From Mobula hypostoma (taxonomy: Eukaryota): DNA of 64,000 nucleotides. This document shows positions 1 through 17,091 of this stretch, in pieces. The notes beneath the pieces are model-generated. The model saw only the letters and a list, made by a program, of their open reading frames with translations, did no database searches and was not told where the DNA came from. The number at the start of each line of letters is the position of its first letter. The stretch's first letter is position 1. The position numbers and the translations under genes are program-made. The stretch spans positions 114,702,001-114,766,000 of the forward strand of contig NC_086097.1 of the NCBI RefSeq assembly GCF_963921235.1, given 5' to 3'.

Positions 1-1165
1 GAAGCTGTGAGATATCATCGGCAACCCCTGCGTCGGGCGGCAAGGACTCGGCTCAGTTCACTTCCAGAAGTGGGGAAGTGCAAGCATAAGGAACAGGGGA
101 GACATGGTACAGGCAGAAGTACGGATCCGTGAGGAAGAGAAGCGGATTTCAAAGGCAGTGGAACGAGGACCCCAGGGTGCCTGGACAAAATGGGATCTGC
201 CCAAGCGCAAGACCTCATGAGCAGAGTTATGGAGACTGGAGCCCTTCCGTATTTCCTTCCTCTTGCGATCCGTGTATGACACCCTTCCTTCGCCATTACA
301 TCTGTATACATGGGGGATGAGAGAGGACCCGATCTGTAAGCTCTGTGGTCAAAAGGGGACACTGGCTCATATACTGTCCGGGTGTAAAACAGCTCTAACT
401 TAAGGGCGGTATAGGTGGCACCATGATAAGGTGCTTCTGGCTCTTGCTGACACACGAGAGCGGGAGAGATGCAAGAAGAGGACGGCTGGCACAGATTTGA
501 GGAAGGCCATCACCTTCATCAAAGAGGGAGCTAGGCCTTTCGTAATCAAACAACCAAAGCCCAATCTGCTGCTAATGGCCAGGTCCTGGGAGATGAGAGT
601 TGATGTGGGAAGGAGGTTGCAGTTCCCGGATGTGCTGCACATAACCCTACACCCGGACATTGTACTGTGGTCAACCGAAGACAAGAAAATAATTCTGGTC
701 GAGTTGACTATGCCGTGGGAGGAGGGATGGGAAGAGGCCCACGAGGGAAAGGCCTGGAAGTACCAGCCCTTAGTGCAGGAGTGTAAAGACAAGGGATGGC
801 AGGCATGGTTGTTCCCTGTGGAGGTCGGCTGCAGAGGTTTCCCAGCCAAATCAGCATGGTGGTTGTTGTCAGATCTGGGCCTGGACGAAAGGAGCGAAAA
901 ACAAGCAGCTCATAGGATGGGGGAAGAGGCAGAATGAGCTTCTTGTTGGACTTGGAGTAGGCGAGGGGAGGAAAGCTGGAAGCCAGGAGCAGACGGGCAG
1001 TGATTTGGCCACCACTGCCGGCCCACCAAATGAAGAGTGTCACGGTTAAGGGTCGAAACACTCTGTGAAGGTTGGGAATCACCTGATGACATCTGCTCCT
1101 GGCTGAAGGCTACGGTTACCTTATAAGGTATCTGGAGAATGCACCCTAACAGGTGTATGTAACAA
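1..1165 (+). mobile_element. HERO-like (RLE-type, R2/NeSL group) non-LTR retrotransposon, 3' part, decayed
   Basis: Frame 2 reads QGAWTKW...SFLLRSVYDTLPSP, CCHC knuckle CKLCGQKGTLAHILSGC (335-385), RYRWHHDKVL, and RLE motifs HPDIVLWS/IILVELTMPWE/KYQPL/PVEVGCRGF. In-frame stops at 8, 218, 401 and 935. Confidence 0.88.
1034..1094 (+). ncRNA. Candidate pseudoknotted hammerhead-like RNA in HERO 3' UTR
   Basis: GAGTGT-C (1035-1041) pairs with (GAA)ACACTC (1055-1063); AATCAC-CTGATGA (1077-1089). The same layout occurs in the second HERO copy. Confidence 0.4.
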
Positions 1166-1395
1166 GCAAACTATTCTGACCTTTGGATTTCTCTGTTCTG
1201 GAGAGCATTAGATGCTCCATTGCTAGATTAATGGAAATTGGAAGCCTTATTTGATATTAGGAGAATCAGGGGATATTTTGCTGGAAAGTGACACTGTGGT
1301 AAAAAAAACCTGTAATGGTCTTATACAGTACTTGGTTCCTCCTGCTTCTATTTCCTATGTTACGATGAATCCGATGTCTCACTAAAATTGTTTCA

Positions 1396-2005
1396 GAAAA
1401 CATAGAAAACATACAGCACAGTACAGGCCCTTTGGCCCACAAAGCTGTGCTGAACACGTCCCTACCTTAGAACTACCTAGGCTTTGCCCATAGCCTCTAT
1501 TTTTCTAAGCTCCTTGTAGCCATCCAGGAGTCTCTTAAAAGACCCTATCGGTTCCGCCTCCACCACCGCCGCCGGCAGCCCATTCCACGCACTCACCACT
1601 CTCTGCATAAAAAATTTACCCTTGATATCTCCTCTGTACCTACTTCCAAGCACCTTAAAACTATGCCCTCTCATGCTAACCATTTCAGTCCTGGGGAAAA
1701 GCCTCTGACTATCCACATGATCAATGCCTCTCATTATCTTGTACACCTCTATCAGGTCACCTCTCATCCTCCGTCACTCCAAGGAGAAAAGGCTGAGTTC
1801 ACTCAACCTATTCTCATAAGGCATGCTCCCCAATCCAGGCAACATCCTTGTAAATCTCCTCTGCACCCTTTCGATTGTTTCCATGTCCTTCCTATAGTGA
1901 GGCAACCAGAAATGAGCTCAGTACTCCAAGTGGGTTCTGACCAGGCTCCTATGTAGCTGCAAAATTACCTCTCGGCTCTTAAACTCAATCCCACAATTGA
2001 TTAAA
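1396..2005 (-). mobile_element. CR1 LINE 3' fragment
   Basis: ORF MRGDLIEVYKIMRG...FFMQRVVSAWNGLP; (TTCTATGT)n-type tail at about 1396-1412. Confidence 0.9.
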
Positions 2006-2034
2006 GTTGCTTTATGATCATTATTTCATAGAAT

Positions 2035-2256
2035 TGTTGTGACTGTGAACAAAGTCACTGGAGAGACACTGAAGCTGGTGGATATAGAAGTCTTTATTCA
2101 GTAAAACAAGCAGGCATCATACTGGACACTCTCTTAGAAGAAGAGGCCTGCTAAACTCAAAGTATGTCACATTTTTATGCCCTTAAGATCAATGGTAACT
2201 CAACACGGTTTCAGTGGCTACAATGTCATTATTTGCTTCAATACTTTGGGTTGACA
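2035..2256 (-). mobile_element. Possible LTR fragment
   Basis: TGT...ACA-like ends and AATAAA on the minus strand (about 2093-2098); no TSD confirmed. Confidence 0.25.
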
Positions 2257-2262
2257 ATGCTT

Positions 2263-2782
2263 CATAGAAGGAGTACAAAGAAGGTTCACCAGATTGATTC
2301 CTGGGATGGGAGGACTTTCATATGATGAAAGACTGGATCGACTAGGCTTATCCTTGTTGGAATTTAGAAGATTGAGGGGGGATCTTATTGAAACGTATAA
2401 AATCCTAAAGGGATTGGACAGGCTAGATGCAGGAAGATTGTTCCCGATGTTGGGGAAGTCCAGAATGAGGGGTCACAGTTTGAGGATAAAGGGGAAGCCT
2501 TTTAGGACCGAGATTAGGAAAAACTTCTTCACGCAGAGAGTGGTGAATCTGTGGAATTCTCTGCCACAGGAAACAGTTGAGGCCAGTTCATTGGCTATAT
2601 TTAAGAGGGAGTTAGATATGGCCGTTGTGGCTAAAGGGATCAGGGGGTATGGAGAGAAGGCAGGTACAGGGTTCTGAGTTGGATGATCAGCCATGATCAT
2701 ACTGAATGCGGTGCAGACTCGAAGGGCTGAATGGCCTACACTTGCACCTATTTTCTATGTTTCTATGTCTCTATGTTTCTAT
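2263..2782 (+). mobile_element. CR1 LINE 3' fragment (same family as 39227-42312)
   Basis: ORF 2294-2677 is nearly identical to the C-terminus of the 831-aa ORF; (TTCTATGT)n tail at about 2753-2782. Confidence 0.92.
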
Positions 2783-3899
2783 TTAAGTTACATATAATTT
2801 TCAAACACCAACACTCCAGACACCCTAGACTGAATGTTAATCACCATTGCCTCTCTGGTTATATGCAGACATCGGGTGAATGGGTGTTTCCTGGTTTGCA
2901 ATCAACACCAGTCTGCAGTTCTAGGAAGATCATTGTTCTGAGCTGCATTTTAAATTCAAACTACAGTCCACATTCAGATCTGAAGACTGGTTGCTATTGA
3001 AATTATTATTTGCTATCTACCATAAGTCTAGAATACACCCAACAAAATCATAAGAATATTAGGATTTGGAAGGAGGCCATTTAGCATTTTAGAATTTGGG
3101 CATTTTAAAACAAAACTCCCTTCAGTTCTATCTTCTGCATTTTTTCTGTGGCCCTATAAATTACTTTTTTTCTCCTGTCTATCCAACTTCCTTTTGAAGG
3201 CCCTAATTAACACTGTTTCCAGCACTTATAGGAAATGAATTCCAGAGCAAACCAATGTGTATTTATTGTAAAACTGTCTTCTCACATTCCCTTTAGTCTA
3301 AAAATTTAAATCTTTGCCATTGGTCCTTGAATCATCCACTAATGAGAACACCTTCCTTCTGCCAAGAGCATTGAACCCATTCAGGATCTGTACATCCTTT
3401 TGAAATCCTCTCTTAACCTTCCTCGCCTCAAGGAGAACTTCTCCAGTCTAATCTCAGAACTGAAATTTCTCACTTATTTCAGGAAAATCATTTGTTTATT
3501 TCCTCTGGTCCTTCATATCCTGAAGTATGAAGGTCACAATTGGTTGAAGTACGTCAATTGTGGCTGAATCACTGAATTTTACAAGTCGTTTGGTTTTGTA
3601 CTCTATCTGTTCTTTACAATCATGGCCAGGATTCCAACTGCAGCTGTTCTTGACATATAATGGTGTTTTTTTGTCAGCTGCACAGCAGTCAAACTTATTT
3701 ATCATACAAGACAATCACCTAAAAGGTGAGTTTCACCTTCTTTCACTTGGATGAACATGACATCGAGGGAAAATGGTAAAAGCCACTGTGTCAAAACCAT
3801 AATCATCTACTGGCAATCATTTGTACCCTACTGACTTCGATTGACATAGTCACATGAATTTCCTCAAATACGTTCCACTGGGAATACCAACTGCGTGAC

Positions 3900-16615: not shown

Positions 16616-17091
16616 GATGGTGAGATATATCCTAGGATGCACTAGGATAGATCATCAGCAATGTAACCTGGGGTCATAAGGTTTTCAGGTCTTTCAACAT
16701 CAGACACTCTCAGCCAGGCAACCAGCCAGGGTTGATCTGGCCCTGGCTTGTGTCCCAGCAGCACTGGTCCACGGGTCACATCTCTTGACCCGTAGCCATC
16801 TGGAGGCTCGCTCAGCAGCCTCTGTGACAGACCTGATGGCTCTTTCCTTTGCAGACCCCTCTAGAGACTGTTGTGCATGAAAAGAAGAGAGTAGATTCTG
16901 CACAGTGAGCAGCCAGAAAAACCTCTCCACCCCACCTCCATAGGCTCACATCATGCCCTCCACCCCATCTCTGCCACTGCTCTACCAGCTCCTTGTATTT
17001 GGCTCAAATGCCTCCTCAATACGGGCTCCACAAGGAACTGTCAGTTCTACCATGACCTCCTGCTTCAAGGTTTCTGACAAAATAATTGCAA
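16616..17091 (-). mobile_element. HERO-like LINE, 5'-truncated, second family, 23-bp TSD
   Basis: VMVELTVP..RIEEAF, EPMEVG, EAAERASRWL; TSD CAATTAATTTTGGCTAAGATCAT (16593-16615) / CAATTAGTTTTGGCTAAGATCAT (17092-17114). Confidence 0.88.
16647..16710 (-). ncRNA. Candidate pseudoknotted hammerhead-like RNA in second HERO 3' UTR
   Basis: Minus strand GAGTGTC-TGATGT-TGAAAGACCT-GAAAAC...ACATTG-CTGATGA; TGATGT can pair with ACATTG. Confidence 0.38.

Follow-up and report, generated by a model that had tools for sequence, protein, structure and literature searches.

A rewired hammerhead motif in the 3′ UTR of RLE-type LINEs

An RNA motif that carries the hammerhead ribozyme core in a pseudoknotted strand order, with one strand of stem II supplied from upstream through a four-way junction, follows the open reading frame (ORF) of long interspersed elements (LINEs) with a restriction-like endonuclease (RLE). 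Comparison of related elements makes it nearly certain that the fold is real, and by its pairings we classify the motif as a new hammerhead variant rather than as type SGC, because the direct link between A9 and position 10.1 that is common to the six enumerated permutations is absent. The motif was recognized in the window, a 64,000-nucleotide stretch of the Mobula hypostoma genome (NC_086097.1, positions 114,702,001 to 114,766,000), where it lies 39 nt 3′ of the stop codon (1001-1003) of a broken LINE ORF. The initial annotation had proposed the order [UH]-[GAAA]-[CUGANGA], folded as a pseudoknot, in the 3′ UTR of an RLE-type LINE. This part stands: the core is conserved, and among 68 related metagenome loci extending to the end of the protein, a core-only descriptor (stems I and III plus the core letters) locates the motif 3′ of the ORF in 45, which speaks against chance. 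The motif letters also lie where they had been placed (stem III 5′ strand at 1035-1039, U1040, C1041, GAAA at 1055-1058, CUGAUGA at 1083-1089). The proposed start at 1034 was not borne out, since the strand from 981 is required; the motif in the window spans 981-1104 and is larger than first stated. The features of this copy are as follows (percentages of paired cells and double changes refer to an alignment of 43 elements).

1..1003, plus strand: 3′ end of the RLE-LINE ORF, broken (zinc knuckle and restriction-like endonuclease); 5′-truncated copy of ~1.2 kb
404-937, plus strand: open stretch in the LINE ORF, with a premature stop at 935-937 and the natural stop at 1001-1003
981..995, plus strand: P0 5′ strand (P0a), pairing with 1090-1104 directly after A9; overlaps the last ORF codons
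996..1019, plus strand: hairpin H (996-1002 with 1013-1019), an arm of the four-way junction containing the stop codon; 7/7 pairs with double changes, 88% paired
1020..1024, plus strand: stem II 10.x strand (G1020 is G10.1), pairing with 1050-1054; 92% paired, 4/5 pairs with double changes; G10.1 is G in 27/28 families
1026..1030, plus strand: 5′ strand (P4a) of P4, the helix bridging stems I and II, pairing with 1071-1075; 84% paired, 4/5 pairs with double changes
1035..1041, plus strand: stem III 5′ strand, U16.1 (1040), and H17 (C1041); predicted cleavage between 1041 and 1042; 93% paired
1042..1049, plus strand: stem I 5′ strand (1042-1046, decayed here) and a 3-nt linker into stem II; 90% paired
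1050..1063, plus strand: stem II 11.x strand (1050-1054, C11.1 being 1054), G12-A13-A14-A15.1 (1055-1058), and stem III 3′ strand (1059-1063)
1071..1082, plus strand: P4 3′ strand (P4b, 1071-1075) and stem I 3′ strand (1078-1082), by alignment pairing
1083..1089, plus strand: C3-U4-G5-A6-N7-G8-A9 core
1090..1104, plus strand: P0 3′ strand (P0b), not stem II
1105..1166, plus strand: 3′ tail with two small hairpins, stopping at the recurrent insertion end 125 nt past the predicted cut; in tandem copies the 5′ UTR adjoins

The copy in the window is itself probably dead: positions 1043, 1079, and 1030 carry private changes, and 1042 has one of the CpG type. A search for tails in the same genome gave 1406 candidates, of which 40 were scored and the 30 best fetched. 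Stem I, for which the initial annotation counted four of six pairs and suggested CpG decay of the mismatches, indeed has 4/6 pairs in the window and 6/6 Watson-Crick pairs in 20 of these 30 best copies. The decay explanation fits A1042 (G in 23/30 of the copies) and fails for C1043 and T1079, which are private non-CpG changes; A1030 in P4 is a private mismatch as well.

Host elements and distribution

Relatives of the ORF (82 matches) are reverse transcriptase (RT) and zinc-knuckle proteins, the named ones coming from fish, lancelet, and bivalves. Pfam domains RVT_1 and zf-RVT were detected in 3/3 full-length relatives tested; the restriction-like endonuclease was read from PD..E..K-type motifs in the alignment, where no Pfam model matched. 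The layout is of the HERO type, with one ORF that encodes RT, a zinc knuckle, and, at its C terminus, a restriction-like endonuclease, and the insertion flanks are unrelated, indicating that the element is mostly not target-specific. We tentatively place it in the HERO clade, the name used in the initial annotation, which fits the domain layout and the lack of target specificity. Excerpts of PMC4640811 describe the HERO clade as mostly not target-specific.

A metagenome scan with an alignment of the C-terminal protein confirmed 286 stretches, the best of which gave 78 loci with identities of 36-90%; viral contigs that were searched held no relative. Where the protein is followed by 150 nt or more, a covariance model finds the motif in 55 of 57 loci, many of them in its training set, and overall the motif lies 3′ of the ORF in 56 of 57 informative related elements. 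An unfiltered search added locus L294, which has 36% protein identity and is outside the training set; there all helices are recognizable by eye, and an Rfam scan of the tail gave no match. In L258 (39% protein identity), the hammerhead is absent and the tail holds no Rfam ribozyme. Downstream of the ORF of this locus (L258:1150-1700) there is a motif like the start of the clade's 5′ UTR; a different or unknown ribozyme may sit there.

Of the 12 families in which a stop was found, 9 have it 77-113 nt 5′ of C3. In the window family and several others, the final codons together with the stop (window 981-1003) are part of P0a and of one half of hairpin H, an overlap that is absent in L274, L291, and L296. 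Where P0a and H share these codons, translation could switch the fold off.

Pairings and the four-way junction

From 5′ to 3′, the strands follow in the order P0a, hairpin H, stem II 10.x, P4a, stem III, UH site, stem I, short linker, stem II 11.x, GAAA, stem III, P4b, stem I, CUGANGA, P0b. A single upstream strand thus has four successive partners: the bases following A9 in P0, its own bases in H, the segment 5′ of GAAA in stem II, and the segment preceding stem I in P4. In a MAFFT alignment of 43 elements, 86.9% of the cells in the six helices are paired, compared to 60.1% after shuffling and 32-46% with slid partners. Double changes occur in 35 of the 37 pairs, as counted over sequences, which are not independent events, in a plain MAFFT alignment. 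The alignment rows were picked on stems I and III and the core letters only, and therefore P0, H, stem II, and P4 were not selected for. The inner 10 pairs of P0 show double changes in 10/10 and are paired in 80% of cells of the 43-element alignment. The initial annotation had made covariation in stems I and III a touchstone of its proposal, and it was found there: 90% and 93% of cells are paired, respectively, with double changes in 5/5 pairs of each stem.

The junction was also examined by an alignment-free control, in which 25 families were considered after two short-tail loci had been dropped and near-duplicates merged. A perfect four-way junction with zero unpaired bases is formed in 16/25 families compared to 7 of 600 swapped combinations of upstream strand and partner; the 9/25 families that fail this strict test show, by eye, mostly single mismatches in decayed copies. 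The junction pairings come from covariation, and we infer that P0 stacks on H and stem II on the core. Single-sequence minimum free energy (MFE) folds recover P0 and H in most, not all, of seven copies, pseudoknots being beyond the method; in the window, positions 1000-1160 folded alone give a z score of −0.1 because P0a is left out of the folded piece.

Stem II deserves separate mention. Its opening pair, G10.1-C11.1, is G-C in 34/43 elements and G-U in 4/43, with the 10.x strand coming from upstream, and contact between stems I and II is provided by P4 (84% of cells paired) together with the covalent short linker. The weak stem II that had been suggested between the bases after CUGAUGA and those before GAAA, the canonical arrangement, is rejected: 49% of cells are paired, the first pair forms in 4/43, and at least four pairs are reached in only 3/25 families even when a bulge is allowed. 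The direct link of 0-2 nt between A9 and 10.1 of hammerheads is replaced by the four-way junction, the direct pair being present in only 4/43.

Core conservation and predicted catalysis

Counted by family, G5, A6, A9, A13, and A14 are invariant (28/28), and G8, G12, G10.1, and C11.1 are held in 27/28. All fixed core positions are held in 26-28 of the 28 families, whereas any of the four letters occurs at N7. At H17 the 28 families have C, U, or A and never G, a tally that is partly circular because at least 36 of the 43 rows come from the descriptor requiring UH or from the same genome as the window; among rows outside the training set, most of them kin of training rows, H17 is not G in 21/22. 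A purine at 16.2 in 42/43 and a pyrimidine at 15.2 in 43/43 complete the RUH and GAAAY contexts. The motif thus has the hammerhead core C3 U4 G5 A6 N7 G8 A9, G12 A13 A14, and A15.1-U16.1, with an H17 other than G. Two subfamilies in the M. hypostoma genome have core differences confined to N7 and H17, the older one carrying A for C at H17 and C for U at N7.

Locus L271 has U3 with A8, that is, the U3-A8 swap of C3-G8, which is reported for natural hammerheads in the consulted part of PMC3088659. In L278 and L284, a U at core position 3 is paired with G8, and together with L271 these loci look like natural steps of the swap. The conservation pattern of the core, down to 36% protein identity, is that of catalysis and argues for it, and on these comparative grounds the motif probably cleaves under some condition. 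Rfam gave no hammerhead match on window positions 1-3000 or on eight related loci, as expected, since the covariance models of types I-III cannot express the permuted pseudoknot order.

Relation to known hammerheads and elements

The strand order, which the initial annotation considered possibly undescribed, is that of type SGC, whose cleavage was demonstrated by Eckert et al. 2023 (PMC10085705; excerpts). According to these excerpts, six permutations were enumerated, CUGANGA with the stem strands next to it (block C) was assumed to tolerate no interruption, type SGC was seen only in metatranscriptomes and not in genomes of known organisms, and the search patterns required CUGAUGA(U)G; the window family was therefore left unmatched. 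As far as that source describes it, type SGC (HRIMA-1 and a variant) shares with the present motif the site-GAAA-CUGANGA order, the short linker from stem I to stem II, a helix that connects these stems at their far sides (P4 here), and the full core. It differs in that the bases after CUGAUGA(U) form stem II, whereas here the 10.x strand lies upstream, across a four-way junction. Order, short linker, and bridging helix are thus those of SGC, and block C is not intact (49% of cells paired). Read from its pairings, the fold is that of type SGC after its ends have been closed and a new opening made between A9 and 10.1; L294 has an extra hairpin where the ends of SGC would lie. The wiring breaks the stated rule that CUGANGA cannot be parted from the stem II strand next to it, explains how pattern-based genome searches overlooked the motif, and places a non-circularly permuted hammerhead in animal chromosomes, where many natural sequences can be aligned for structural studies.

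The literature covered, running text that is largely open-access, holds no description of this four-way-junction wiring or of a hammerhead in the clade, including the consulted parts of PMC13725137, PMC10162972, PMC7936874, and bioRxiv 10.1101/2020.08.07.241729; the wiring may have been mentioned in print before. Extended type III hammerheads have "additional helices," which in the excerpts of PMC7936874 sit at the far end of helix I and not at A9. In the same coverage, no paper joins hammerhead, HERO, and retrotransposons, and only the original report addresses type SGC.

Among mobile elements, Penelope-like elements (PAc/Poseidon) resemble the element described here in tandem or partial-tandem copies, a hammerhead in the repeated end, and reverse transcription starting inside the RNA (PMC11167929, in part). 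They differ by a GIY-YIG endonuclease and a telomerase-like RT, in contrast to the R2-type layout with a C-terminal restriction-like endonuclease, and the PAc hammerhead has canonical stems I and II, unlike the present one. Animal non-LTR retrozymes are similar in their tandem units with hammerheads and proposed circular RNA intermediates (PMC7229834, in part) and different in being short and noncoding, with type I hammerheads and demonstrated circles; the unit here is autonomous and ∼3.7 kb long, and its circles are conjectural. The partial-tandem copies with a hammerhead in the repeated end are thus a trait shared with both groups, and neither a GIY-YIG endonuclease nor a noncoding unit is found. 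R2 and other LINEs whose 5′ ribozymes resemble that of hepatitis delta virus (HDV) are comparable RLE-LINEs that free themselves from a longer transcript (PMC13708176, in part). Their ribozyme is of another class and stands 5′ in a linear element whose ends are fixed, whereas here the motif follows the ORF and there is no fixed 5′ end.

Zebulon of pufferfish is an RLE-type retrotransposon that was reportedly found as partial tandem arrays, so that the tandem habit itself is probably already known; to our knowledge, no ribozyme has been reported for it. Zebulon is presumably the same element as HEROTn. HEROTn is listed in the HERO clade (PMC7650587).

Head-to-tail organization of the copies

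The copies share one 3′ end, 125 nt past the predicted cut, and two of the fetched copies ran on beyond it into shared sequence that proved to be the element's 5′ UTR. Conversely, among the 30 best of 232 candidates, 5′ UTRs are directly preceded by an element 3′ end in 29/30. A junction pattern gave 87 matches compared to 16 for a reversed control and, with earlier loci, 98 places; removal of 14 places without the element on either side, 12 duplicates, and one without a downstream unit left 71 loci. In these, the upstream piece, or second lap, varies continuously in length from 11 nt to more than 1.3 kb (median, 182 nt); 41/71 pass the predicted cut site, and 35/71 have at least 186 nt, that is, a whole second ribozyme. 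Four of the six longest second laps end at 1.65-2.25 kb, and in none of these four does the examined lap complete a second unit. Among the loci examined, none is an array with two complete units or more. Only about one copy in ten reaches the 5′ UTR (57 versus 541 exact 20-mers).

A target-site duplication is clear in 1 of 14 full insertions, L191, which consists of a unit plus 213 nt. Derived letters are shared by the two laps 32 times compared to 20.4 after permutation (p = 0.003; 14 loci), an excess that subfamily structure could also cause. Outside this genome, the head-to-tail junction occurs in 13/16 hand-picked metagenome contigs, followed by a conserved structured 5′ UTR. In L053 (1501-1680) and 11 metagenome loci, this 5′ UTR forms a conserved multi-hairpin RNA directly after the junction, with double changes in 23 of 35 predicted pairs and no match in Rfam; it lies just 3′ of the priming point and is therefore a candidate protein-binding or translation element. 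Two further arrangements were observed. In L223 (69-7250), two elements that are 68% alike stand head to tail, each with a ribozyme, through either insertion before another family's 5′ UTR or a template switch. L300, L071, and L051 (G000:C1, ∼127,438,900-127,444,230) are one locus, comprising 1.65 kb, a junction, a full unit, and a second junction with 101 nt of 5′ UTR, after which it jumps straight to the last ∼20 bases of the 3′ end.

The 5′ ends of copies show no accumulation where cleavage is predicted. For the first lap, a pattern for foreign flank at the site gave 12 matches, against 632 copies, and all of them ran on upstream as element; these 12 apparent ends were rejected as an older subfamily with a different H17 letter. 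For the second lap, 46 copies were at risk and 5 of them stop at 123-132 nt, which is not significant (nominal p = 0.03, with other intervals scoring alike). The lack of a pile-up of 5′ ends at the site, with 41/71 laps running past it, fits a sealed circle and equally an uncut template. Of 24 sequencing runs, all of them contigs and one on record as RNA, four were compared with one unit and gave cover without an informative joint; contigs by their nature cannot show ends, and the comparison speaks neither for nor against cleavage.

Models of template formation

The explanation we lean toward, as somewhat more probable than not, is that the rewired hammerhead processes tandem transcripts into clasped or circular unit-length templates; cleavage and circles are both deduced. 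Since the element is copied as more than one unit head to tail, an insertion with a second lap of at least 186 nt holds two complete ribozymes, and its transcript, cut at both, would give a unit-length RNA. The ends of this RNA could re-form P0, stem II, P4, and stem III (∼30 bp), clasping the 5′-OH and the cyclic phosphate for ligation. The element protein would then prime internally at the fixed 3′ end and copy through the sealed site, past one full turn, regenerating a partial tandem. The model needs strand exchange between the two ribozyme copies as a presumed step. It would account for the proximity of the ribozyme to the priming point, as an overlap of 186 nt restores the ribozyme, and for the persistence of long second laps, and a cut near the 3′ end would not leave the tail orphaned. 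The initial annotation had worried that cleavage would remove the element's 3′ end. The head-to-tail layout (29/30) eases this worry, and four helices would, to judge from the structure, keep the cut pieces together. As a precedent, retrozyme repeats give linear and circular RNAs, the circles being closed by RtcB (PMC7229834, in part). On the other hand, in the parts of PMC11167929 consulted, a Penelope element could insert in vitro without its hammerhead, and reads did not end at the hammerhead site, a result that counts against a processing or circle role.

In a different reading, the ribozyme is active but slow or protein-gated and makes no circles: uncut multimers would be the template, and the cut would trim the upstream copy and define a 5′ end or sort RNAs between translation and copying. 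According to the same excerpts of PMC11167929, cleavage by the Penelope hammerhead depended on protein, and the template was mainly RNA that had not been processed; type-SGC ribozymes are slow, at 0.007-0.19 per min (PMC10085705, in part), and cleavage by hammerheads in viral UTRs promoted cap-independent translation (PMC13725137, in part). Given where the stop codon stands relative to C3, ribosomes could open P0 or H, and a few second laps (L060, L067, and L210) start at or within 2 nt of the site. With linear templates, however, the second lap could only shrink from generation to generation, yet laps of 1.3-2.25 kb persist with continuous lengths, and the loci examined include no array with two complete units or more. 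We consider this reading unlikely, at perhaps one case in four. The alternative already raised by the initial annotation, a hammerhead-derived, noncleaving structure recognized by the reverse transcriptase, seems to us improbable. A helix other than stem II, P0, takes up the bases after CUGANGA, only 125 nt separate the motif from the priming end, and the copies are unbroken at the site, all as such a structure would have it; but the upstream strand supplies stem II with its G10.1-C11.1 pair, and fixed G12, G8, G5, A6, and A9, a free N7, the exclusion of G at H17, and the U3-A8 swap speak for catalysis. Separate hairpins at the 3′ end and after the junction are, moreover, alternative candidates for protein binding.

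Tandems might, finally, arise by insertion before existing 5′ UTRs, with the ribozyme separating neighbors in read-through RNA like the 5′ ribozyme of R2. The L223 pair, two families only 68% alike in head-to-tail position, is what such self-targeting would produce, and the letters that the laps share need not come from a single event, since subfamily or age could explain them. Against it, the upstream pieces are much shorter than usual truncated copies: 24/71 end within 105 nt, while across the element's first 100 nt the number of exact 20-mers drops from 541 to no less than 509 (a rough comparison made with different words). L191 is flanked by its target-site duplication, and a lone 5′ UTR was found in 1/30. 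We regard self-targeting as very improbable.

If tandem transcripts are indeed processed into clasped or circular templates, a whole clade of autonomous R2-related LINEs may replicate through circular RNA made by a hammerhead of a seventh connectivity, with clasped cut ends and rolling target-primed reverse transcription (TPRT) that restores two ribozymes; for this wider proposal, we would put the chance slightly below even. RLE-LINEs are modeled on R2, in which the RNA is linear, an HDV-like ribozyme lies 5′, and the 3′ end is where priming occurs. A clade without a fixed 5′ end, with internal priming and a hammerhead, would, if true, be a case of convergence on the Penelope/retrozyme strategy, and the element offers a direct way to test the use of circular templates by an autonomous retrotransposon. 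A ribozyme whose products are clasped by ∼30 bp may also serve in the making of circular RNA.

Other elements in the window

A second decayed ribozyme copy lies on the minus strand at window positions 16637-16768 and belongs to a different, older family of the same clade; older families of the clade in this genome are known from this one window match only. ORF-end fragments of another LINE family occur at 1477-1773 (minus strand) and 2255-2782 (plus strand), the second followed by a short-repeat tail, and both have the appearance of ordinary repeats.
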